A stretch of DNA of 64,000 bases from Methanomassiliicoccales archaeon (GTDB lineage Archaea; Thermoplasmatota; Thermoplasmata; RBG-16-68-12; SOIM01), in NCBI GenBank assembly GCA_004377185.1, contig SOIM01000058.1, forward strand, positions 67,828-131,827. Direction: 5' to 3'. Positions 44,105 through 56,523 of the stretch are shown here, in pieces. Each line of letters opens with the position of its first letter. Position 1 is the first letter of the stretch. Under the pieces are notes generated by a model, which saw only the letters and a list, made by a program, of their open reading frames with translations, was not told where the DNA came from and ran no database searches. A program made the translations under genes and the position numbers.

Positions 44105-44827
44105 CTACGATTCGGTCGACTTCAGTGCCCCTCGCTTGGTGGCGACCTCCCCTACAATCCTTCCGTCCTCAATCTTGAGGGTTCTGTGAGCTATGGATGA
44201 AATCCTTTGATCGTGAGTGACGATGATTACCGTCTTCCTGTACTTGGTGTTCAGGCTGTGGAACAGATCGAGCATTTGCTTTCCAGTGTCGGTGTCCAGC
44301 TCTCCTGTCGGTTCATCTGCAAGCACAAGAGGAGGATCATTCGCCAATGCGACCGCAATCGCTATCCTCTGCTGTTCCCCACCGCTCAGCTCGTCCGGTT
44401 TATGGATTGCCCTATCGTGCATGTGCACCAAATCTAGCAACTCGTTCGTTCTGGATTTCCTCTCCTTAGAGGTTTTGCCTGCAAGTCTCATCGGAAGCTG
44501 GACGTTCTCCTTGGCCGTGAGTGTGGGTACAAGATTGAAGAACTGGAACACGAAACCGACCCTTTCCCTTCTGTACTTCACCATCTCCGGATCAGAATAA
44601 TGAACGATGTTCGCCCCATCCACAACTATGGAGCCGGCAGTCGGCCTATCCAAGCCGCCTATGAGGTTCAAAAGAGTCGTCTTACCACATCCCGAGGGCC
44701 CTTGTATGGCGACAACTTCCTTATCCTGGATTTCCAGATCCAATCCCCTTAGGGCGATGACTTCGGACTTTCCCGTTCTGTAGACCCTTATGAGGTCCTG
44801 CGTAACAATCTTAGGGATTTTAACCAC
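44105..44827 (-). CDS. ABC transporter ATP-binding protein (MacB/LolD-like)
   Basis: GPSGCGKTT Walker A, LSGGEQQRIAIA signature, LVLADEPTG Walker B. Confidence 0.9.
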   Translation of the reverse strand: MVKIPKIVTQDLIRVYRTGKSEVIALRGLDLEIQDKEVVAIQGPSGCGKTTLLNLIGGLDRPTAGSIVVDGANIVHYSDPEMVKYRRERVGFVFQFFNLVPTLTAKENVQLPMRLAGKTSKERKSRTNELLDLVHMHDRAIHKPDELSGGEQQRIAIAVALANDPPLVLADEPTGELDTDTGKQMLDLFHSLNTKYRKTVIIVTHDQRISSIAHRTLKIEDGRIVGEVATKRGALKSTES

Positions 44828-47603
44828 CTCGTTTTCTTAATGCTTGAGCCAATTTCATTCTTCTAATCCTCAACGTAGCAAGTAATGAAGCAACAATCAG
44901 AATGACGATGGTCAAGAGAATCAGGATCAATGTCTGGAAGGAAACCACCAACGGCATATCAAGAACTCCTTGCCCTAGGCCCACTATTCCGAAGGACAAG
45001 AGTTCGTTGAAAACAAAGGCGGTCACCAAACCAGTGACGATCCCTATCACACAGCCGATGATGATTATCGTTACAGCCTCCCCCAAAAGAAGGCGGGCGA
45101 CCTGCCTAGAACTCGCACCTCTGGACATTATACTAGCGAACTCCCCTTCCCTCTCGGTGGCAGCCACGTACATGATGAGGCCCAAACCTACCCCGATGAT
45201 CAGCAATGCGAAGGCGAACTCCACAAGCAAGAAGTTGAATAGAGCTCCGGTGAATGGTTCACTCTTGGCCTTTTCCAGCTCTTCCTCGTAAACGAGGATA
45301 TCGGTGATTTCGACAGGATAGGAAACTCTTATGCTTTCTCCGACAGCTACCGGGTCCTGGCCAGACTCAACATTCAAAATGAACTTCCATGTTTGATTTC
45401 CGAAAGTGGTCTCATTCAAAGTGACGAAGTCTACATACATCTCGCCCTCGGTGAAGATTCCGATGTCTGGGCCCATGAAACCCGGCAGAGTTTTGACGAT
45501 CCCTACGACAGTGAATTGATAGTCGACTTCCTCTGATTGCCAGGTTCCATTCTCATCAGTGTAGGAATTGTGAACTTCTACGGGGAAAACATCATTCACT
45601 CTCAAGTACTGAGATTCTGCGAGTTTTTCAGTTACAATCACATTTCCAAGAGTGCTCAGCATGGAGATTGTGGATGCGGGTTCTCCTTCCTTGAAGTAGT
45701 AAGGATCTGGTTGAACGACCTCCCAGTAAGCAGACGAATTGATTGCCCATACGTTCGTATGGATATTTTCATATCCAGAGATTGCACTAAGCTTTGCGGT
45801 TTCAGTTAACTTGTCTACTCCCCCGATATCTTGTATCTCGGTTCCAAATGACCTGTTTACTGTCAAGGCAACAAGGGCGATATCACCACCTATCTGTGCC
45901 TCCAGACTCCTCTCTATGTAAGCGGCCTGAGTCTCTCCCATTGAAGAAACGACTATACCGAACGCCAGTCCCATTGCAATAAGAACACAAACGCTAGAAG
46001 CCCTCTTGGGATTCCGAACTATGTTCTTGTTCACAATCGCATAGAGGTCTTTGGTAAAGAACTTCGTAGCTCGGGAAGTCCAGTCGTAGATTTTGGTGGA
46101 GAATCTCGTCAATAAGCTTGTAACACCAATAATCAAGAAGAAAGGCGAAAGCGGTGTAAGAACCATCAAGAGGGGCGCGATCAGACAGAGTGCGAATGTG
46201 AGAGGAGTACCCGCCCCAGTGAAGTGCTTCATAAGGAGCAAGGTCGCATAGGTGAAAATAGCCAGTGCGATGAAGATTACGTCCCTTAGGGGTTTGTATC
46301 GAAGGGCGGCCTCTTCTTCCGAATACTTGTGCAATGCCTCGGTCACGGGAATAGTTGAGGCCCTTTTGGCAGGTCTATAAGCGGAAAAGAGCAGAAGCGC
46401 AATGGCCAGAACTATTGCCAGAACAATGGTGAATTCGGTTATAGTCATCTCTAGTAGAGAGGGAGCTACTCCGTAAGGGGACGCCATCGAGAAAAGGTTG
46501 CTCGCAAGAGCTCCAAAGATGAGTCCTAATATTCCGGCAATCACGCCCAGAATGAGGGCCTCAATGATTAGAAGCCCAAAGACCTGACGACGGTTTGCAC
46601 CTCTGGCCTTGAGCACACCAATCTCTCTCCGTCTCTCGCTCAAACCGAGCTCTGCACCGATTATGCCAAGGTATACGCCGAGGATTATTGCAGGCAGAGC
46701 CAAAGCAAGGAAAATCGCTCGGTACATCATGATCCAGATGCTGAAGAACCCAACGATGAAGCCAAGCATGCTATCTTCGAAAGATATTTCATAGGGGACA
46801 CCAGCATTGTTCAAATCCCTTTTCATTCTCCCCAGAAGTTCGTTCGTTTTCGCTGGATCGCCGGCTTTGACGACCGCATCTTTGTTTATCCAAACGTAGT
46901 AGCTTGAGTACAAACCATATCCAAAGTAATCCTGCAAGTCAAAAGCGGAGATAATAAGCTCGACATCCTCCAAATTGACAAAGATCGTATCAAAAAACCA
47001 GAACATCGGACCAAACATGGGGAATTCGTCTTCTCCCGGTTTTTCGACCTGGACAACCTTGGCAACCGAGAAATTGAGAAAATAGTATTCCGGCTCTGGA
47101 GCCATGTAGTTTGTGTACCGCAGAGTCACTTGATCTCCTGGTGATACTTCAGCCTCAACGGCCATATCCTCAGTGAGCACAATATGGCCTCTGGGAACAG
47201 AAGGGTCGGACACGAAACCGAACTTGTTGGCCACCCGACTGAAGGTGGAGCTAATTGCTTGCAGGGTTGCGAAGGTAACGTTTTGGGAACCATTGTATCC
47301 CCACTCACATATCTCAACCATGCCGAGGTCAACGATTGGCTCCACCATTTCTACGTTCGTGACATTAGCCAGGTCCCGAGTTGCATTGGTGAACTCTCGA
47401 TTGGTACTAGATCTGCCTACGAAGTCATAGCTCACAGTGTCCATCATCTGTTTGAACACAGAACCTGTGGTAGTATCGATAGCCACATTTTCTCCAGCCA
47501 CAAGGGTAACGGCCAGAAGGACGCCAATTATTGCAGCGAACGTTCTCCTCTTGTTTCGAAAGATACTTTGTATTGCATACTTGGAAAAGGACAGAAATGA
47601 CAA
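44820..47603 (-). CDS. Large FtsX/MacB-like ABC permease (927 aa, two FtsX 4-TM modules with big extracytoplasmic domains)
   Basis: TTG start. N-terminal FtsX-type hairpin (IFRNKRRTFAAIIGVLLAVTLV), repeated FtsX-like TM bundles. Overlaps the ATPase start. Confidence 0.8.
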   Translation of the reverse strand: MSFLSFSKYAIQSIFRNKRRTFAAIIGVLLAVTLVAGENVAIDTTTGSVFKQMMDTVSYDFVGRSSTNREFTNATRDLANVTNVEMVEPIVDLGMVEICEWGYNGSQNVTFATLQAISSTFSRVANKFGFVSDPSVPRGHIVLTEDMAVEAEVSPGDQVTLRYTNYMAPEPEYYFLNFSVAKVVQVEKPGEDEFPMFGPMFWFFDTIFVNLEDVELIISAFDLQDYFGYGLYSSYYVWINKDAVVKAGDPAKTNELLGRMKRDLNNAGVPYEISFEDSMLGFIVGFFSIWIMMYRAIFLALALPAIILGVYLGIIGAELGLSERRREIGVLKARGANRRQVFGLLIIEALILGVIAGILGLIFGALASNLFSMASPYGVAPSLLEMTITEFTIVLAIVLAIALLLFSAYRPAKRASTIPVTEALHKYSEEEAALRYKPLRDVIFIALAIFTYATLLLMKHFTGAGTPLTFALCLIAPLLMVLTPLSPFFLIIGVTSLLTRFSTKIYDWTSRATKFFTKDLYAIVNKNIVRNPKRASSVCVLIAMGLAFGIVVSSMGETQAAYIERSLEAQIGGDIALVALTVNRSFGTEIQDIGGVDKLTETAKLSAISGYENIHTNVWAINSSAYWEVVQPDPYYFKEGEPASTISMLSTLGNVIVTEKLAESQYLRVNDVFPVEVHNSYTDENGTWQSEEVDYQFTVVGIVKTLPGFMGPDIGIFTEGEMYVDFVTLNETTFGNQTWKFILNVESGQDPVAVGESIRVSYPVEITDILVYEEELEKAKSEPFTGALFNFLLVEFAFALLIIGVGLGLIMYVAATEREGEFASIMSRGASSRQVARLLLGEAVTIIIIGCVIGIVTGLVTAFVFNELLSFGIVGLGQGVLDMPLVVSFQTLILILLTIVILIVASLLATLRIRRMKLAQALRKRGG

Positions 47604-47797
47604 CTACCATTCCTCACATGGTTCCATCTTAGACATGGATTTGTTCGAGTGATTCAGCACACAATCCTCCTTCCAGACCCCTATGGGCAAGGGAGAAATA
47701 TAGTTTTGGCTCAACCTCCTTTGGAGAAGCTTCACAAGAGACATTGGCAGTATGTCGAAACCCTGTGTCGGTTCCACTTCATTTCCCCGCTGGAGAT

Positions 47798-47816
47798 GGG
47801 AATATTTAATATTCCC
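47798..47816. promoter_or_regulatory. Near-perfect 19-bp palindrome GGGAATATTTAATATTCCC about 45 bp upstream of acyl-CoA dehydrogenase paralog 2; candidate operator overlapping a TATA-like core
   Basis: Read directly from the sequence. The only mismatch is at the central base. Located in the divergent intergenic region 47604-47857. Confidence 0.3.
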
Positions 47817-47857
47817 AACATGTTCATGACATGCGCCGGTAAGGAGGAAGGGGTAAC

Positions 47858-48997
47858 ATGGATTTCAAGTTGACAGAAGAGCAAGAGATGATAAAGAAGA
47901 TGGTCCGAGATTTTGCTGAGAAGGAGATCGCCCCACTCGCCAGGGAGAACGACGAGAAAGGCGCCTATCCACCGGAAATCGTCAAGAAACTCGGCGAACT
48001 CGGGATTATGGGGATGACCATACCCACGGAATATGGGGGAGCTGGCGCAGACCACATCAGCTACACGATCGCGATAGAAGAACTGTCACGAGTGGACGGT
48101 TCCTTTGGGACGGTTGTATCCGTCAACAATTCCCTTGTGTGCGATCCGATTCTGAAGTACGGAACGGAGGAGCAGAAACAGAAGTTTCTAATCCCGACCG
48201 CAAAACATGGCATTGGAGCCTTTTCCTTGAGCGAACCGGGTGCTGGTTCGGACGCGGGAGCGCAGAAGACCACAGCCGTTCTGAAAGGAGATGAATATGT
48301 CATCAATGGGACCAAGAACTTCGTCTCCAATGGAAAAGTGGCGGATGTGACATTACTGTTCGCGATGACTGACAAATCGAAAGGAGCCAAGGGGATAAGT
48401 GTGTTTCTGATACCCGATGGTACTCCTGGATTCACAAAGGGCAAGAAAGAGGACAAACTGGGAATAAGGGCGTGTGACACAATCGAGATTTCATTCGAGG
48501 ATTGCAGGATCCCTAAAGAGTATCTGCTCGGAGAAGAGGGTCAGGGACTGAAGATCGCCTTGGGAACACTGGACGGAGGAAGGATTGGGATAGCAGCTCA
48601 GGCGGTGGGAATAGCTCAGGGGGCCTTGGACGAGTCGCTCAGATATTCGCAAGAGAGGGAGCAGTTCGGCCAGCCGATATTCAGTTTTCAGGCAATCCAG
48701 TGGAAGTTAGCAGACATCGCGACCGAGACGAGCGCCGCACGCCTTCTCGTTCACAAAGCAGCATTTGCAAAGGAACAGGGCAAGAGATTCTCCTTGGAGG
48801 CCGCAATGGCAAAGCTCTTCGCCTCCGAGGTCGCAGTGAAGGCCACGCGCGAAGCAATCCAGATTTTTGGCGGATATGGGTACATGAAGGAATATCCAGT
48901 CGAGCGGTTCTATAGAGATGCCAAGGTCACCGAGATCTATGAGGGTACGAGCGAAGTGCAGAGAATCGTGATTGCGAGAGCGCTGCTGAAGGATTAG
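47858..48997 (+). CDS. Acyl-CoA dehydrogenase, paralog 2
   Basis: 379 aa, colinear with and similar to paralog 1 (MDFKLTEEQEMIKKMVRDFAEKE... vs MDFQLTDEQRMIQSMVRDFAENE...). AGGAGGAAGGGG SD. Confidence 0.9.
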   Translation: MDFKLTEEQEMIKKMVRDFAEKEIAPLARENDEKGAYPPEIVKKLGELGIMGMTIPTEYGGAGADHISYTIAIEELSRVDGSFGTVVSVNNSLVCDPILKYGTEEQKQKFLIPTAKHGIGAFSLSEPGAGSDAGAQKTTAVLKGDEYVINGTKNFVSNGKVADVTLLFAMTDKSKGAKGISVFLIPDGTPGFTKGKKEDKLGIRACDTIEISFEDCRIPKEYLLGEEGQGLKIALGTLDGGRIGIAAQAVGIAQGALDESLRYSQEREQFGQPIFSFQAIQWKLADIATETSAARLLVHKAAFAKEQGKRFSLEAAMAKLFASEVAVKATREAIQIFGGYGYMKEYPVERFYRDAKVTEIYEGTSEVQRIVIARALLKD

Positions 48998-49025
48998 AAC
49001 TGCGTTGGCATGATGAGGTGCTGGC

Positions 49026-49451
49026 CTAGAGCCTACTGATCACCGTTCCTGACCACATGAAAACCGACAGGAGATTGAACGAGACGAGGTAGACCCATCC
49101 ACACATTTCGATGAGAAGGAGTCCCTCCTCCTGCTCTTTGGACAAGGAACTGGTCTTGACCGAATAGTAGACCAGGAAGAGCATGACGGTACCTATGAAG
49201 GCTATCAGGACCTTGAGGCTGAGCCAGATTACCCAACCATGGTCAAGACTCAAGATCGTAGAAACGAAGATGTTCCTCTCAATGACCCCCAGATGACAGA
49301 TTCCTAGATAGGTCAGGAAGCTGTCCCAGACCAAGAAAGATAGGACAAAAATGGTCACAAAGAGGTTCCTGTCCTTGATCCAATCTCTGAGTATACGGCC
49401 TGCAGTGTGCTTATTTGACACATTCTCGGTACTGGCCTTCCGCTCTTTCAC
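49026..49451 (-). CDS. Hypothetical integral membrane protein (4 predicted TM helices)
   Basis: 141 aa, hydrophobic segments FVTIFVLSFLVW, LIAFIGTVMLFLVYY, VYLVSFNLLSVFMW. Confidence 0.5.
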   Translation of the reverse strand: MKERKASTENVSNKHTAGRILRDWIKDRNLFVTIFVLSFLVWDSFLTYLGICHLGVIERNIFVSTILSLDHGWVIWLSLKVLIAFIGTVMLFLVYYSVKTSSLSKEQEEGLLLIEMCGWVYLVSFNLLSVFMWSGTVISRL

Positions 49452-49576
49452 AAACTCCCCCTCGTTCCAGTGAGTTCAGCGTCCCTCAATATGACTCATT
49501 GCGGGATTTCGGTCTCATGTAATATATTGGACGGACAGGGGTTAATGTTTTCGATTGAAGGATGCTGATTCCTGCA

Positions 49577-51322
49577 TCAAAAATGAATGAATCCCTGGCG
49601 AGAGTTCCCATCCACATATACGTCCAAACCACGAGAGATCTCTATCACTTTGACCCATTTCGCGTCAACCTTGCTCTCCCTCTCCTCCAAGAGTGTCTCG
49701 TTCAGGTAATCCCCCTTCTCAAGGAAAAGAGGGATGTAGAGCATATTGCTGGCCTCCATGTCTGCGAAGAAGTGGGTTCCGTAGGACAGCTCGGGAGAGA
49801 ACCTTTCGTACGAGAGCTCCACCACAACTGCTGCATTGGACATCTCGCTGTAGTTCACAGGTACCCCGAGCTCAGGGTTGGTGGTTGCCCATCTGCCGGG
49901 ACCAATGAGTATGTATTCCATCCCTTCGAACATCTCGTTGATCTTCCCAACCTCTCTGGCAATGTCATATCCCTTGGAGAAATCGTACTTGCGATGCTGG
50001 ACCCAAACGATGTTCCGAATTCCTCTGATGATACCATTCCCAAGAACGCGACTGCTTCTGAGGAGGACGTTCGATTCGGGTACGTCGGTAGGGATGGAAA
50101 CTTTCCGGTGTTCTGGCAGCCTGCCGAGAGGCCTCACTTGAACTAAGTAGAAGTAGCCCTTCTCAGTGAGGGATGTGCCACTCTCATCGGTCCTGTAGTC
50201 GAACACGAACTCTATGTCTATCGGCCTTCCAATCACCCTTTCCAGATTCCGCATTAGGGACCCTACGAGAGGGACGAAGGGGATGTACCGATTGGATGAG
50301 AGTATGGGCTTGAAGGTGAGGATTATCCTTTCGTCGGGCGCGAAATTCTTGGGTGTCTCAACAAAATAGCTGTCGTCCTTGAGGGTCTGACCCAACATGT
50401 ACAATTTGCTATTGCATTCTTGGATGTCGCTCAGTCTCTTGAAAAGGAACAGCTCACTCTCATAGTCCAAGGCGTCGATGGCATCCTGAGAGGAGGCCAC
50501 AATATCATCAACGGCCATACCTTCCGGCCTGAGTTCAGGAAGAGAAGGCGAGAAAACGGTGGCTTGGAATCTTCCTACCGCTCTTGTCCCCAGCCCCGCG
50601 ACGATTCTGCACAGGCCGTCATTCACCCCGATTCTCTCGGACCAAGGATAGTAGTTCCTGGAGAATGCTACACCAGCAAGAAGAGGATAGTACAGGTCGT
50701 CATCATGCAGTGAGCCCACAACGTCCTGGATCAATATGGCCATCTTCTCTTCCTGCCACGGCGCGTCCATCCTCTCCGCGTATTTCCTGGCGTTGGGCCC
50801 ATAAGTGCTCGCATAGACGATCCTGATTGCCATCTCAAGCTCTGCGATCCTCTTCGTCAAGGGTCCCTTGTTTGTGATGAACACGGACTGATAGATCCCC
50901 GCGAACGAGTGTTCGGGACGGTCTTCCAATATGGATGATGACCTAACGACCAAGGGTCGGTCCTCCTCTTCGAGGAACCTCACCAGCGAATCGTGGGCAC
51001 CGGGCGGGAACTCCCCAGTGAGGAATCTGACATTCATATCCTCATCGGTCAACTTCTTCTTGTACAGAAGTTCCACAACATCCCCAAGTCTGTTCAGTTG
51101 AATGAACTGGTCGAACACGTCTGTAGCAACGATCGTGGATCTTGGTATCCTCAGCATCTCAGGGAAATCGCACAGTTTCTCTTGGCCCGCCTCCATCAGG
51201 TAGCTCACAAAAATCAGGCCCTTGGCCTTACCTCCGACCGATCCTTCTCCAATGATCTCAATCCCGGATGGGAGATACTCTCTATCGACTTGGAATTGCG
51301 AAAGGGGACCTGGGGATGGCAT
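49577..51322 (-). CDS. PEP-utilising-enzyme N-terminal (PPDK_N/ATP-grasp-like nucleotide-binding) domain protein with a C-terminal region of unknown function; no His swivel domain seen
   Basis: IGEGSVGGKAKGL resembles the GGKxxxL motif at the start of PEP synthase/PPDK nucleotide-binding domains. 581 aa. Remaining 250 aa unassigned. Confidence 0.65.
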   Translation of the reverse strand: MPSPGPLSQFQVDREYLPSGIEIIGEGSVGGKAKGLIFVSYLMEAGQEKLCDFPEMLRIPRSTIVATDVFDQFIQLNRLGDVVELLYKKKLTDEDMNVRFLTGEFPPGAHDSLVRFLEEEDRPLVVRSSSILEDRPEHSFAGIYQSVFITNKGPLTKRIAELEMAIRIVYASTYGPNARKYAERMDAPWQEEKMAILIQDVVGSLHDDDLYYPLLAGVAFSRNYYPWSERIGVNDGLCRIVAGLGTRAVGRFQATVFSPSLPELRPEGMAVDDIVASSQDAIDALDYESELFLFKRLSDIQECNSKLYMLGQTLKDDSYFVETPKNFAPDERIILTFKPILSSNRYIPFVPLVGSLMRNLERVIGRPIDIEFVFDYRTDESGTSLTEKGYFYLVQVRPLGRLPEHRKVSIPTDVPESNVLLRSSRVLGNGIIRGIRNIVWVQHRKYDFSKGYDIAREVGKINEMFEGMEYILIGPGRWATTNPELGVPVNYSEMSNAAVVVELSYERFSPELSYGTHFFADMEASNMLYIPLFLEKGDYLNETLLEERESKVDAKWVKVIEISRGLDVYVDGNSRQGFIHF

Positions 51323-51397
51323 TTGACGTGATATTCCCTATCGGTATAAATCATCTACTTCACCGTTCTCAAAACCCTCCGAGTCCTCCTTCGGAAC

Positions 51398-52432
51398 CTA
51401 TTTCCATCTCGTGAGTATCTCTTCTCTTCTGAAGACTTTCGTGCTGAGAAAGACCACGGCCACATCAATGACCAGGAATATGACGCAATAGATGCCCATC
51501 ATCCAAGCGCTTGTGAAGGCAGGGCCAGCAAAGGTGAGAAACACGAACACAAGGACCGGAAGAACGATCAAACCCCCGATCTGCTGAGAAGCTCGCACGT
51601 CCGTAACCTTTGAGGAAACCATCACGTTCAGGGAGATGCTCAAAATACAGAAAAGTGGGGCCAGTGCCAGGAATCCGATAATCCAAAGAGCGTTGGGAAG
51701 CGGATAGTGTCCCAGAAGTGGGAATGCAAGGGTATTCACCAAAACGGTAGATATCACATAGGAAACCCAGGTGGCAGCCATAGTGACCACGAAGATCGAC
51801 AGCATCTTACCCGTCAAGAGCTCCAGATCAGTGGTGGGAGTGGCGAGAAGGGGTTCCAGGCTCCGGTTGTTCTTCTCTCCGACAAAGCTGTAGGACGCTA
51901 CGAAGGTGGGAATGACAGCTGGAATGATCATATAGAAGAAGAGAAGGAAGTTCAACATGGTGAGCGTTATCTCTTTCCTCTCAGAGCTCTCCTCGGTCAC
52001 AATTGAGCTGTCCTTCACAACAGTTCCTTCCCTTGACTTCAGATTGTAGATATTGGAGTTGGTGATGATGGAATACTCAAGTGAGACGTTATCCAGTATC
52101 GAATTGCTGACCACCACGAACCTGAGCGTTGAGTTTCTAACGAGGGACGCCTCGATGACAGAACTGAATATTTCCATATTCTGGAAGGACGCATTGATGT
52201 AGTTACCACGGTAGACAGTGTGATTATCAAGATTCCAGTTTGTCGTCAGTTTAATGTCGAGGGGCGGGCCGCTGTCCTCTTCTGCGAAGAACTGTATTGG
52301 GAGGAAATAGCTGATAGGGACGATAACACCCATTATGGTGGGCATCAATAGGATTGTGAAGATGATGTACTTGTTCGTCTTGAACTCCGCCATGTCCTTC
52401 TTCGCAACGATCCAAGACTTCCCTATTCTCAC
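51398..52432 (-). CDS. ABC-2 type permease with an inserted repetitive beta-solenoid-like extracytoplasmic segment
   Basis: GTG start. N-terminal TM, about 120-aa Asn/Ser/Ile-rich repetitive segment (NSTLRFVVVSNSILDNVSLEYSIITNSNIYN), 5 C-terminal TM helices. Confidence 0.75.
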   Translation of the reverse strand: MRIGKSWIVAKKDMAEFKTNKYIIFTILLMPTIMGVIVPISYFLPIQFFAEEDSGPPLDIKLTTNWNLDNHTVYRGNYINASFQNMEIFSSVIEASLVRNSTLRFVVVSNSILDNVSLEYSIITNSNIYNLKSREGTVVKDSSIVTEESSERKEITLTMLNFLLFFYMIIPAVIPTFVASYSFVGEKNNRSLEPLLATPTTDLELLTGKMLSIFVVTMAATWVSYVISTVLVNTLAFPLLGHYPLPNALWIIGFLALAPLFCILSISLNVMVSSKVTDVRASQQIGGLIVLPVLVFVFLTFAGPAFTSAWMMGIYCVIFLVIDVAVVFLSTKVFRREEILTRWK

Positions 52433-52434
52433 GG

Positions 52435-53352
52435 CTAACCTCCAATGAGTTCCAGATAGACCTCTTCAAGTGTGTGCTTGAGCTCGGACATGAACTGTAT
52501 TTCCCCTCCGCTCCGGATTATCACTTCAGCCACTTCCGAGTTCTCATCTTCAGGCTTGGCAAGATCTATCAACAGACTATTATCCTCAGTCCTGACGTTC
52601 TTTGCAAAAGGGAGTGCCTTGACCGCGGCAACAACGTTTGGTGAGAGCTTTTTCAGTTGTACTACCGTCGTTCTTCCCCAGAACCTCTCCTTCAGTTCCT
52701 TGGGAGAGCCTATCGCAATGAGTTTGGTATTGATGACACCGACCCTATCACAGAGCCTCTCGGCTTCAACGAGATTGTGAGTGTTGAGGAATATGGTCCT
52801 GCCCTCCTGCTTCAGCTCGGAGAGGAAATCCCTGACCGTCTTGGCGGCCCGAGGGTCCAACCCTGCAGTCGGTTCGTCCAGGAAGAGTATCTCGGGATCA
52901 TGGACCAGAGCCCTGGAGATTGCGATCTTCTGTTTCATCCCCTTGGAGAATGTGTTGACTGGCTCATCGCGCCTCTTCCACATGCCGAGCATCTCCAACA
53001 GTTCCTTGATCCTTTCCCTTCTTTTCACTGCCGGGACGTCATACAACTGAGCGAAGAAATCCAAGTTCTTGTAGGAGCTCAACCGTTCATAGAGGCCAGG
53101 AGCTTCCGGAAGCAGGCCCACAATCCGCCTTATGTTGAGTGCGTCCGGCTCTTTCCCTATCTCATTCCCTTTGACGAAAGCAGTTCCGTAAGTGGGTTTG
53201 ATCAAACAGCACAGCATCCTCGTTGTCGTGGTCTTGCCAGCGCCATTGGGTCCGATGAATCCAAAGACCTCGCCTTCGTCAACCTCAAGGGTCAGGCCTT
53301 CGACGGCTACCACTTCACCGAAGGTTCTCGTCAGGTTCTCCATCCTTATCAT
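52435..53352 (-). CDS. ABC transporter ATP-binding protein
   Basis: GPNGAGKTTT, FSKGMKQKIAISRAL, ILFLDEPTAGLD. Confidence 0.9.
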   Translation of the reverse strand: MIRMENLTRTFGEVVAVEGLTLEVDEGEVFGFIGPNGAGKTTTTRMLCCLIKPTYGTAFVKGNEIGKEPDALNIRRIVGLLPEAPGLYERLSSYKNLDFFAQLYDVPAVKRRERIKELLEMLGMWKRRDEPVNTFSKGMKQKIAISRALVHDPEILFLDEPTAGLDPRAAKTVRDFLSELKQEGRTIFLNTHNLVEAERLCDRVGVINTKLIAIGSPKELKERFWGRTTVVQLKKLSPNVVAAVKALPFAKNVRTEDNSLLIDLAKPEDENSEVAEVIIRSGGEIQFMSELKHTLEEVYLELIGG

Positions 53353-53466
53353 TCGATTTCCTCACCCTGCACCCGATTCCGGTTCCAATTCCAGTCAAGG
53401 TTGCCAAGAGCCATGGCTATTCGGTCATAAGGAAAACAAGAATTTGATGGTTTCGAAACAGCGGAG

Positions 53467-54810
53467 TTATTCAGCGCTGGCGGATTCTTCCTTTCCGCCA
53501 CCTGATTTCTTTGCCAACGATTCCTTGAGCCGGGCGACTTCTCCTTCCAGCCTGCTTATCTTCACCTCTCTGTCGAACAACGTGTCTTCGAAATGCTCGA
53601 AATCCCTCAACTTCTTCTCGAGTTCTCTCTTGGAGGCGGTGAGAGCTGCCGTCTTTTCGTGGACCTTCTGCTCGAGGATATCCCTGGCCTTCTTCAGTAG
53701 AGATACGAATCTGGCTCTTTCGGAAATGTCCCGGACAATGCCTTGAATGAGCTCCTTGTCATCTGCCTCGAAAATCCTCGAACTTATTTCCACCGGAACA
53801 ATCGTGCCATCTTTCCTAATCATCTCGGAATCGAAACGTACCGAGCGTTCGATCTTTATCCTCTCGAAAGCCTCGTGCGAGTCAGGAACGGAATTCTCTG
53901 TGTGAATATCAGGAATGGAAATCTCAAGGAGTTCTTCCTTGGTGTAGCCCAGAAGCTCCTCCACCCTGCTGTTGACTTCAAGTATCTTGCCTTCCAGGGT
54001 GTGTATGAACACGGCATCGTTGGATTGCTCGAAGAGGTTCTTGTACTTCGTTTCCGACATTCGCAACTCGCCTGTCCGTTCCTTGACTTCCTCTTCCAGA
54101 CTTGTAGCCGTGTGCTCAAGTGCGGTGGCCCTTTCCTCAGCTCTGTCTTCGATTCGATGGCTAATTGACCTTTCGTGACCGATATCCGCCACAAGGCTGG
54201 CAATGGACTGGAGCAGCTTGGCCCACGCCAAAAGCTGATCCCGGGGGTAGAACCTTAGCTCCAGTGCCGCTTTGGCAAGCTCCTCTTCGTCCACCCCTAT
54301 CTCACGTGCAAAACCCTTGACATCCTCCACATCTGGACTCTTGGACCTCACCTGTCCGCCCAATATGCACCCCATCACCTTGTCCTGAATCACGATTGGG
54401 GCAGCGAAGAAGGCGGTCTCACAGGCGAAGCACTCGTGGATTACAGGATCACTGCTTTTCAAGGCCTCGTCCACAGCTTCCATGTCCGCTTTGAGACATT
54501 TCTCGTGAACAGCTCCGTCAACAAGCGTGCAGAAACGGGTCCATGGGCTGTTCGGTACTATGGAATGGAACTCATTGTCGAAAATCCCAACGACCATTCC
54601 AGTGGCCTCTACGAAACTGTCCTGAAGCCCCTTCAAGAGGTCCTTGTCGACCAGATCGGAGAGAATCAACTCATCCGTTTCCTGTCTGATTTTTTCTGCC
54701 AATTGATGGAAACTGTGGGTGGGTTCGCCTTCCTCTCCGTTCAAGACATCCTCCTCCTGTTGAGCTTGTCGTTCCGAACCCAAAAGAATTCGGGAAATCT
54801 GCCTGGCCAA
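53467..54810 (-). CDS. Sensor protein with PocR-like ligand-binding domain, PAS domain and C-terminal coiled coil; no recognisable output domain
   Basis: LQDSFVEATGMVVGIFDNEF...CLKAD...ECFACETAFFAAPI (PocR-like). PAS: NDAVFIHTLEGKILEVNSRVEELLGYTKEELL...IVRDISER. Heptad-rich tail. Confidence 0.7.
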   Translation of the reverse strand: MARQISRILLGSERQAQQEEDVLNGEEGEPTHSFHQLAEKIRQETDELILSDLVDKDLLKGLQDSFVEATGMVVGIFDNEFHSIVPNSPWTRFCTLVDGAVHEKCLKADMEAVDEALKSSDPVIHECFACETAFFAAPIVIQDKVMGCILGGQVRSKSPDVEDVKGFAREIGVDEEELAKAALELRFYPRDQLLAWAKLLQSIASLVADIGHERSISHRIEDRAEERATALEHTATSLEEEVKERTGELRMSETKYKNLFEQSNDAVFIHTLEGKILEVNSRVEELLGYTKEELLEISIPDIHTENSVPDSHEAFERIKIERSVRFDSEMIRKDGTIVPVEISSRIFEADDKELIQGIVRDISERARFVSLLKKARDILEQKVHEKTAALTASKRELEKKLRDFEHFEDTLFDREVKISRLEGEVARLKESLAKKSGGGKEESASAE

Positions 54811-55166
54811 CCAACAGTGTTATAGGTTTTGCATAATCTCGAAGGTATTTAATGGTAGCGAAAGAAATGCTGTTGCTCCTTTCGACTAGAGACATTTTCG
54901 TTGCGCAAGATTGCCGTTTCTTGGGGAAAATCGCTCCACGGTGACAATCACCATTTGCTCTTCCTGGAACGCCCGAACGCTTGTCTGAGACTGGGTCGCT
55001 TACTTGAGAGAAACAACAGGAGTGAACATGAATCAAGGTTTCCCTCTGGACTCTCATGTCCCTCTGGAGAATACCCACTCCCGTCTTGTTTTCCCGATTC
55101 TCCTGACGGGTAATGGTGGGAGGAAGATGCCCGTTTGCCAACTGGCTGAGGACAGGATGTTTTCTC

Positions 55167-56387
55167 TTATTGCTCTCTTGGTTCTTCTTCCTCTTTCGAC
55201 TCTTCCTCTGGCAACTCTTCCTCTGGCAACTCTTCCTCTGGCAACTCTTCCTCTGGAAGTCTACCTCTCCCTCGTGCGGCTGCCGCAACAGCTGCGATGA
55301 TGATTACTATTATGATTATGGCAATGATTATCCAGAGCCAGGGGAGCTCTTCGGTCGGTTCTCCGTCAGCAGCAGACACTGTGATCTCATGAGGTGAGGT
55401 TGTGGGATTCGTTGCGGGATGAGTTGCGGTATTAGTACCATCCGTTGCAGAGATGTAGTACTCGACACCATCCGTGGTCACATCATCTGACGGGATGGTT
55501 CTAGTGTAAGTGTCATCTGTTCTGGTCATCGTGACAGCCGTGAAGTCAGCGTCACCTGTCTTTCGGTAGTACAGAGTTGCACTTTCCATGCCCAAACCAT
55601 CGTCTGTGATCGTGGCAGTAATGGTGATTGACTGTTCAGCTGTCGCGGTTGTCACAGCCGTGTGAGTTATCGTTGGAGCATCTGTATCTTCAGAAATCGC
55701 AATCGTGGAGTTAACAGTCCGATTGTCATTGTCGTTTGTATCATTTGCCCAGATAAAGTAAGTTACATCACCAGCAGAAGATTGCGCAGGGATGGTATAG
55801 TTGTAATTGCCTGCGACCAAGACCATCGACTCATTAGCGGTGATGCCGGCCACATCTGTGTAGGTCAAATTCACTTCATTGACTGCTACGTTGTCTGACA
55901 CTTGAGCAGAAATTGTCATTTCTCGACCTACCCAAGCAGCAACTACAGGCGTATGAGTTATCTCAGGAGATTCTGTATCTTCTGAGATTACGATCTCAAA
56001 GTCAATGGTTCTGTTCCAATTGTCGCTTGTATCTGTATCATTTGCCGAAATATTGTAGAAGACACTGCCAGCAGAAGATTGTGCAGGGATTATAAAGCTA
56101 TAGTTGTCGTCCCAGTTAGCCATCGTCACATTGTCCCATGCACCGCTGACTTCTGTGTAGTTCAACCACACTTCATACACGTCATCAACATCCGTCACTT
56201 TGGCAGTAATGTTGATGTCGATACCTACTGTTCCGTCAGTTACTGGGGTATGATCTATCTCGGGACCAAAGGCATCCGCCATCACCGTTGGCATATTCAC
56301 AAGCAAGGCACCAAAGATCATAGCTGTAACAGCAATGATTGATGCCCATCGCACACTATGAGCCGAGAATTGTCGTTTGGCTTTCAT
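55167..56387 (-). CDS. Cell-surface protein with three ~95-aa HTP/ANDT-signature Ig-like repeats, C-terminal TM anchor and (EELPE)n acidic tail
   Basis: Start ATG 56387 (GGAGG SD) giving signal MKAKRQFSAHSVRWASIIAVTAMIFGALLV. Repeats each contain HTPV...NY(N/S)(Y/F)(T/I)IPAQSSAG.V.Y.I.AND(T). Tail WLWIIIAIIIIVIIIAAVAAAARGRGRLPEEELPEEELPEEELPEEE. Confidence 0.75.
   Translation of the reverse strand: MKAKRQFSAHSVRWASIIAVTAMIFGALLVNMPTVMADAFGPEIDHTPVTDGTVGIDINITAKVTDVDDVYEVWLNYTEVSGAWDNVTMANWDDNYSFIIPAQSSAGSVFYNISANDTDTSDNWNRTIDFEIVISEDTESPEITHTPVVAAWVGREMTISAQVSDNVAVNEVNLTYTDVAGITANESMVLVAGNYNYTIPAQSSAGDVTYFIWANDTNDNDNRTVNSTIAISEDTDAPTITHTAVTTATAEQSITITATITDDGLGMESATLYYRKTGDADFTAVTMTRTDDTYTRTIPSDDVTTDGVEYYISATDGTNTATHPATNPTTSPHEITVSAADGEPTEELPWLWIIIAIIIIVIIIAAVAAAARGRGRLPEEELPEEELPEEELPEEESKEEEEPREQ
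55201..55260. repeat. 15-bp tandem coding repeat x4 (actcttcctctggca) encoding the (LPEEE)n tail
   Basis: Four perfect or near-perfect 15-nt units read from the sequence. Confidence 0.8.
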
Positions 56388-56523
56388 ACGTTTTCCTCCA
56401 AACCTATTGACATTTCCGCCGTTGCATTCTTGCAGTCCTATTAATGTCTTTCGGTCAAGCGTTTGCATTCAAGATATAACACAGTTGTACTGGATATAAT
56501 GCTGTTATAATATATTGGAAATG

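Follow-up and report, generated by a model that had tools for sequence, protein, structure and literature searches.

The 64-kb window analysed in this work, which is the whole stretch of DNA taken from contig SOIM01000058.1 of a Methanomassiliicoccales archaeon (G+C about 50% throughout), carries on the minus strand a complete open reading frame (ORF; 49577..51322, from the ORF list; 581 residues plus stop) encoding a two-domain dikinase-like protein. The ORF is an intact member of a large protein family, and not a broken phosphoenolpyruvate (PEP) synthase. Its product probably works like a dikinase, yet falls outside any characterised dikinase family. Dikinases such as PEP synthase, pyruvate phosphate dikinase (PPDK) and rifampin phosphotransferase (RPH) are usually described as built from three parts: an ATP-grasp, a swivelling domain that carries the phospho-His, and a domain for the acceptor. 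The family described here (about 1,900 clusters at 50% identity) would have only two parts, its His domain having diverged past sequence recognition. What is new is a large two-domain dikinase-like family with a His-type domain, the link of which to known ones is at the level of the fold and of modest strength. The more specific hypothesis, that the protein is a self-contained phosphotransfer enzyme of the dikinase type working via a phospho-His517 intermediate, has in our judgement about an even chance of being correct. It is put forward because the nucleotide site is intact, the C-terminal domain is predicted to have a swivel-like fold, and the sole conserved His of the protein, preceded by Gly-Thr/Ser, lies at the N-terminus of a helix.

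An intact ORF with a conserved ATP-grasp domain

The 581-residue product is identical to P0001, annotated as 'hypothetical protein E3J35_10575' in a metagenome-assembled genome (MAG) of a Methanomassiliicoccales archaeon. When 5.8 billion proteins were searched, 4,081 matched. Among the best 120 of these 4,081, nearly all are 570-620 residues long and cover 95-100% of the query, with identities ranging from 44 to 89%; the exception is P0022, a partial sequence of 442 residues. These homologues come from Thermoplasmata/Methanomassiliicoccales, Methanofastidiosa, Thorarchaeota, Methanomicrobia and Bipolaricaulota. The start (MPS...) and the end of the protein are common to its homologues in the alignment.

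These data bear on the hypothesis that the ORF is a fragment or a pseudogene of a canonical PEP synthase or PPDK, from which the swivel and PEP domains have been split off or frameshifted. The sole Pfam match of the protein is indeed the N-terminal PPDK_N domain, and PEP synthase models match partially and below threshold. The hypothesis is nonetheless refuted. A tblastn search with E. coli PpsA detects no similarity in the window outside the ORF itself, and hence no swivel or PEP-domain fragment elsewhere in the 64 kb. The downstream genes, one for a small membrane protein and one, convergent, for an acyl-CoA dehydrogenase, are unrelated. There are thousands of homologues, and nearly all of those listed share the full length and are highly conserved at the C-terminus. 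The initial annotation had proposed a stand-alone PPDK_N protein, naming as the alternative a PEP synthase with split or frameshifted swivel and PEP domains nearby. The PpsA search disposes of the latter within the window, and the constant length of nearly all the listed homologues bears out the former.

The ATP-grasp nucleotide-binding domain (PPDK_N, PF01326) corresponds to residues 28-415 (50078..51241, minus strand). The Pfam match is unambiguous (E=2e-34; 119.8 bits, where the cutoff is 27) and spans positions 3-325 of the 328 in the profile. The domain is about 60 residues longer than the profile and contains an insertion of about 60 residues. The GSVGGKAKGL motif and the PPDK_N nature of the N-terminal part had been pointed out in the initial annotation, and both hold. 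The boundary suggested there, about 330 residues followed by a remainder of about 250, does not: the ATP-grasp domain ends near residue 415, leaving about 165 residues.

Conservation was assessed in two sets, alignment A2 (112 clade members) and a superfamily set of 134 sequences from all clades. The nucleotide-site motif G30-G31-K32 (VGGK; 51227..51235, minus strand) aligns with VGGK of E. coli PpsA, is invariant in A2, and is conserved in at least 95% of the superfamily sequences. R127-S-S-S-I-L-E133-D134 (VRSSxxxED; 50921..50944, minus strand) aligns with VRSSATAED of PpsA; R127, S128-130, E133 and D134 are invariant in A2, and R127 is present in at least 95% of the superfamily set. D369-I-E371-F372 (DIEF; 50207..50218, minus strand) aligns with DIEW of PpsA, and is assumed by analogy to bind metal or phosphate; D369, E371 and F372 are invariant in A2, E371 reaching at least 95% in the superfamily set. 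The domain is closed by Q395-V-R397 (VQxRP; 50132..50140, minus strand), which aligns with VQARP of PpsA. Q395 is invariant in A2 and conserved in at least 95% of the superfamily sequences, R397 in 90-95%. Membership in PF01326 is therefore supported both by the score of the hidden Markov model and by the nucleotide/phosphate-site motifs (GGK, VRSS..ED, DIE, QxR). The full-length AlphaFold2 model has a predicted local distance difference test score (pLDDT) of 85.3 and a predicted template modelling score (pTM) of 0.83. According to Foldseek, the nearest solved structures to this model are Listeria RPH (E=6e-15), HpeI and PPDK. Profile searches against the Protein Data Bank (PDB) retrieve RPH and PEP synthase at E=4e-12 to 6e-10, with HpeI (PDB 9GOJ) among the top matches. 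Judging from its sequence, the N-terminal domain looks catalytically competent.

NCBIfam gives only partial, far sub-threshold matches to PEP synthase, PigC/RedH and RPH models. The PEP synthase equivalogs (TIGR01418, NF005057, NF004531) score 27-40 bits against cutoffs of 598-883, the best value being 40.3 against 883; TIGR01418 scores 27.5 bits against 739.75. Pfam does not find the TIM-barrel domain PEP-utilizers_C (PF02896) in the protein, nor is similarity to the C-terminal part of PpsA seen across the 64 kb. In contrast to PEP synthase (pyruvate, water dikinase) and PPDK, the window protein lacks both the PEP/pyruvate TIM barrel and the GGxT(S/C)HAA motif. Labels such as 'PEP/pyruvate-binding domain-containing protein' or 'phosphoenolpyruvate synthase', attached to proteins of about 580 residues, should not be equated with PEP synthase activity.

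The C-terminal domain and His517

The C-terminal conserved domain (residues 416-581; 49580..50077, minus strand) belongs to no Pfam family, and is predicted to adopt a swivelling beta/beta/alpha-like fold. It ranks among the most constrained parts of the protein, and carries the motifs VLGNG, IAR456, YxLxGPGRW478, NPxLGxP, VE502 and PELSYGTH517F. The G474-P-G476-R477-W478 motif (49889..49903, minus strand) lies at the end of a beta-strand, and is followed by a low-confidence loop (479-490). In the superfamily set G476 and R477 are found in 134/134 sequences, G474 and W478 in 132/134 each, and E502 is absolutely conserved. The S513-Y-G515-T516-H517-F518 motif (49769..49786, minus strand) hosts the candidate phospho-carrier, H517, at the N-terminus of helix 517-525. 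This is the sole conserved His of the protein, occurring in 132 of the 134 sequences, the only deviants being L011 (Arg) and L046 (Asp). The residues which precede it are conserved as well (T/S516 in 132/134, G515 in 133/134, S513 in 131/134).

The predicted order of elements is a hairpin (VLGNG), a helix, a strand (YILIGP), a short helix, a strand (AAVVVELS), a loop, the H517 helix, a strand (LYIPLF), and a final hairpin (VYVDG...GF). This parallels the canonical succession ILV, IVTxxGGxTSH-helix, PAVVG, vtvDG..G.v of the swivel sequences harvested for comparison, and the Gly-Thr/Ser pair preceding H517 recalls the canonical T-(S/C)-H. The shared strand-loop-His-helix-strand order makes H517 a candidate carrier, and we infer from topology and conservation that it may be the equivalent of the canonical catalytic His. 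Homology of the C-terminal domain to phosphohistidine domains is plausible, at the level of the modelled fold only. The full-length model has only two segments with pLDDT below 50, residues 479-490 (window 49853-49888) and 512-517 (window 49769-49786). They fall right after GPGRW and on LSYGTH, so that they overlap or directly follow the most conserved motifs of the domain, which is unusual. The model suggests that these conserved segments may be conformationally mobile catalytic loops.

Several observations weigh against the identification of a swivel domain. The defining phosphohistidine motif, T/S-x-x-G-G-x-x-x-H or GGxT(S/C)HAA(I/V) (PMC12167813), is missing from the window protein. The surroundings of H517 (S509-P-E-L-S-Y-G-T-H517-F-F) lack GG at positions -5/-4, and only G(-2), T/S(-1) and the His are conserved. 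Alignment of the C-domain profile by hhalign to a profile of nine swivel sequences gave probabilities of 0.1-1%, in inconsistent registers. Two registers in fact compete for the pairing: the alternative one matches GPGRW...LGVPV with GGxTSH (GGRTCH)...LGIPAV, and places Ala/Gly-Ser/Thr at the canonical His position. Moreover, the whole-chain pTM of 0.83 suggests a fixed, rather than a swivelling, arrangement of the domains. Pfam, including the PEP-utilizers mobile domain (PF00391), does not match the C-terminal 181 residues even at E<=10, in line with the initial annotation, which had noticed the lack of a GGxTSHAAI-type motif. A search of the PDB with the C-domain profile retrieved no PEP-utilizer, and Foldseek with the C-domain model gave nothing significant (best E=0.03, template modelling score about 0.2). 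The attempt to prove at the sequence level that the C-terminal domain is a swivel domain thus failed, by Pfam at E<=10, by profile against the PDB, and by hhalign with shallow and widened profiles (<=1%).

In all characterised PPDK_N enzymes the beta-phosphate of ATP is attacked by a His on a swivel domain. The gamma-phosphate then goes to water or inorganic phosphate, and the phospho-His donates its phosphoryl group to an acceptor that is bound at another place (PMC4844700, PMC12167813). The reaction of the window protein may be envisaged along the same lines. In a first step, which is well supported, the ATP-grasp domain would bind Mg-ATP through the same motifs used by PEP synthase, PPDK and RPH. 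In a second step H517, residing on a flexible loop after Gly-Thr at the helix N-terminus, would attack the beta-phosphate; AMP would be released and the gamma-phosphate lost as inorganic phosphate, leaving a phospho-His517 enzyme, as in RPH and PEP synthase. In a third step the phosphoryl group might be handed to a small molecule or to a protein acceptor. Since the protein lacks a third, acceptor-binding domain and no separate partner gene is kept, the acceptor site would most likely be formed by invariant residues of the C-terminal domain (GPGRW, R456, E502, E511, Y491, Y529), possibly with a contribution of the 60-residue insertion of the ATP-grasp domain. If this mechanism is true, the sequence space of phosphohistidine carrier domains is extended, and a sizeable set of enzymes awaits the identification of its substrates.

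The protein may instead work as an ATP-grasp kinase or ligase by a direct, non-ping-pong route. The C-terminal domain would then be a substrate-binding or lid domain which merely shares the swivelling beta/beta/alpha fold, and His517 a general acid/base or a ligand-binding residue and not a carrier. We regard this as possible, if rather doubtful. It is also conceivable that the module is a nucleotide-sensing regulator or pseudo-enzyme, which binds ATP or AMP and regulates partners without turnover. This is very unlikely: the nucleotide-site motifs and H517 are conserved near-completely across about 1,900 clusters, which points to retained chemistry, and the His is missing in only two of 134 sequences.

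A comparison with known systems illustrates how the phospho-His517 dikinase proposed here would differ from them. RPH (RPH-Lm; PDB 5HV1/5FBS; PMC4844700), a member of the broader group of small-molecule dikinases, hosts a rifampin-binding domain of about 430 residues between the other two, and retains both the canonical GG...T-H motif and a PF00391 match. The window protein has none of these: 581 residues leave no room for the middle domain, and the RPH model (NF041857) scores 17.6 bits against a cutoff of 999. In the two-component dikinases HpeHI, CreHI and phenylphosphate synthase PpsAB (PMC12167813) the ATP-grasp unit is similarly kept apart from any PEP-type acceptor domain. In these systems, however, the His and substrate-binding domains reside on a separate subunit encoded next door, whereas in the window protein a divergent His-type domain is fused to the ATP-grasp. 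The His-domain and substrate-binding subunit that would be encoded next to an ATP-grasp subunit of the HpeI/PpsB type is missing beside the ORF, its neighbours being an ABC-2 permease and a small membrane protein. The C-terminal PEP-utilizer-like domain of Geobacillus (Bacillus) stearothermophilus pyruvate kinase (PDB 2E28) is attached to pyruvate kinase rather than to an ATP-grasp and, unlike the domain described here, has clear similarity to PpsA, TSHAA included (E=3e-17). The initial annotation had remarked that truncated PPDK_N proteins are poorly characterised; the literature search agrees, as no paper describing the family of the window protein was found. None was found on DUF5752, a domain met in related proteins (see below), either.

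Distribution of the module and gene contexts

Among 1.84 billion representatives, a profile of the C-terminal domain alone identified 1,912 clusters at 50% identity, of which 1,379 reach E<=1e-10. In these clusters the domain is always located about 400 residues into a protein of about 580, or at the end of longer ones. It was never seen in this search without a preceding stretch of PPDK_N-like length and, on these sequence grounds, seems to be obligately paired with PPDK_N. Pattern scans, run on species-representative genomes and, from alignment A1, on metagenomes, covered at least 600 stretches each; a metagenome scan starting from the single window protein yielded too-specific patterns, and nothing was confirmed. 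Most of the superfamily loci fetched belong to MAGs, from lineages of bacteria and archaea associated with anaerobes. In a rough neighbour-joining tree the window protein falls in a clade of stand-alone proteins, which was named S1.

Other clades include short forms (572-608 residues), encoded 4-163 bp downstream of a glutamate dehydrogenase (GDH)-type ELFV dehydrogenase. They also include forms of about 1,060 residues having an N-terminal extension and a C-terminal nucleotidyltransferase (NTP_transf_2/Polbeta) domain (e.g. L043:4987-8172, L070:5002-8190). The gene for the long form usually comes after that for the short paralogue, the two overlapping by 4 nt, and often has a Metallophos gene as a neighbour. 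Metallophos phosphoesterase neighbours include L060:8245-12075 and L070:8187-9074, a form of about 1,276 residues being found at position +1 in 11 loci. The arrangement ELFV dehydrogenase, short paralogue (572-608 residues), long paralogue (about 1,060 residues) is a recurrent operon, exemplified by L070:1886-8190 (Bacteroidota MAG095), and occurs also in L037, L038, L043, L050, L061, L067, L069, L072 and L084. Of the genome loci, 33/82 have a GDH gene in the flank fetched, as do 26/71 non-S1 metagenome loci; the corresponding figure for S1 loci is 0/21, and none is present in the 64-kb window.

A further clade consists of forms of 770-820 residues. Forms of about 990 residues are extended at the N-terminus by a genuine receiver domain together with DUF5752. 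Response_reg is detected in 15/17 of them (best E=1e-10), with no variation at the acidic pair and the Asp acceptor, and with at least 90% conservation at the Ser and Lys positions. By sequence they look like response regulators having a dikinase-like module as output. One resides in Mariniphaga anaerophila DSM 26910 (L085:4678-7668), others in L030, L044, L048, L049, L055, L058, L062-L064, L073, L075 and L077-L080. Forms of 1,270-1,414 residues add PAS. Four giant proteins (P0124, P0125, P0127, P0129; 1,484-1,654 residues) contain two copies of the C-terminal domain, suggesting a tandem fusion of two modules which mirrors the gene pairs of short and long paralogues.

These architectures and gene associations suggest a regulatory use of the module in the sister clades, which is not directly transferable to the window protein. 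Carried further, they inspire a broader hypothesis, according to which the PPDK_N plus GPGRW/GTH module is an ATP-driven histidine autokinase devoted to regulation. Phospho-His517 would be passed to proteins, either GDH in the GDH-linked bacterial operons or the receiver domains in the fusions of about 990 residues. The NUDIX, metallo-beta-lactamase (MBL) and Metallophos hydrolases, and the fused nucleotidyltransferase, would act as erasers or co-writers, and the stand-alone archaeal form would be the minimal version. We deem this scheme unlikely. The strong and replicated association of sister clades with GDH provides all the same a testable entry to a possible new layer of nitrogen/carbon regulation, and the fusions with receiver and nucleotidyltransferase domains offer a further one.

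The gene contexts of the S1 clade are variegated. S1 genes were found next to YjbQ and BacA, next to a methyltransferase and an MBL hydrolase and, the genes being only 1 nt apart, next to PGM/PMM and an MBL hydrolase. In one bacterial lineage the gene follows a 2-oxoacid:ferredoxin oxidoreductase (POR) operon and is overlapped by 4 nt by a NUDIX gene (L006:5423-7806, L093:5534-7854, L094:5555-7800); convergent genes for PFK and FBP aldolase are found in the same lineage. An MBL-fold hydrolase is encoded directly downstream in two archaeal lineages (L091:6001-8473; L004/L005/L092). The NUDIX-type and MBL-fold neighbours of S1 genes are both predicted hydrolases. In the loci sampled, neither an operon partner conserved across S1 nor a PEP-utilizer-containing neighbour was seen.

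The neighbourhood in the window and the ABC-2 exporter

Upstream of the gene in the window, and like it on the minus strand, lie genes for an ABC-2 permease (51398-52432), for an ABC ATPase (52435-53352) and for a PocR+PAS protein (53467-54810). The gene is followed, 125 bp downstream, by a gene for a multi-pass membrane protein of 141 residues (49026-49451, minus strand), which has a weak, sub-threshold match to DUF5658 (20 bits against 25.2), and further by the convergent acyl-CoA dehydrogenase gene. The ORF list and Pfam agree with the setting outlined in the initial annotation, i.e. between a membrane protein and an ABC-2 exporter, with a PocR-PAS sensor nearby. An ORF of equal length and position to that of the membrane protein is found in an 85%-identical relative (L001:9850-10275).

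This setting raises the hypothesis that the protein is a resistance- or export-associated kinase of small molecules, such as antibiotics or xenobiotics, cooperating with the ABC-2 exporter under PocR-PAS control. The genes from PocR-PAS to the membrane protein lie on the same strand, the order PocR, ABC, ABC-2, target, membrane protein, acyl-CoA dehydrogenase is retained in the 85%-identical relative, and RPH, the closest solved homologue of the N-terminal domain, is an antibiotic kinase. Yet the synteny is gone in all more distant members of the clade. Since no partner is kept across S1, the link to the exporter, implied by the initial annotation together with that to PocR, is lineage-specific at best. 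In addition, the protein has no domain of the rifampin-binding type, its score with the NCBIfam RPH model being far below cutoff as reported above, and the PADLOC defence models match neither the target nor the flanking genes at E<=0.1. Separate transcription is suggested by the 75-bp spacer between the target and the permease gene, within which an archaeal TATA-box-like element (TTTATA; 51345..51350, minus strand) was read from the sequence, starting 28 nt 5' of the ATG. In the light of general archaeal promoter architecture, this spacing would be compatible with a transcript that has a short leader or none. The gene probably has a promoter of its own and no mechanistic tie to the adjacent exporter, and a role as an exporter-coupled kinase is improbable. 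On the basis of the negative PADLOC result, membership in a known anti-phage defence system was rejected. Rfam detects no RNA elements near the target (47000-56000).

Two other features of the region were noticed. A MacB-like ABC pair (44105-47603, minus strand), made of an ATPase of 240 residues and a permease of 927 residues with two FtsX domains, is inserted between Thi4 and the acyl-CoA dehydrogenase; in the syntenic locus of the 85%-identical relative Thi4 directly follows the acyl-CoA dehydrogenase gene. On the other side, the interval 55167-56468 (minus strand) encodes a protein of 433 residues, the sole Pfam match of which is a faint one to GlgE_dom_N_S. The protein has numerous N-x-S/T sequons and, at its N-terminus, a predicted membrane or signal segment; at the C-terminal end a transmembrane stretch precedes about four copies of an EELPE repeat. 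In the DNA these copies appear as a 15-bp tandem repeat near 55170-55290.

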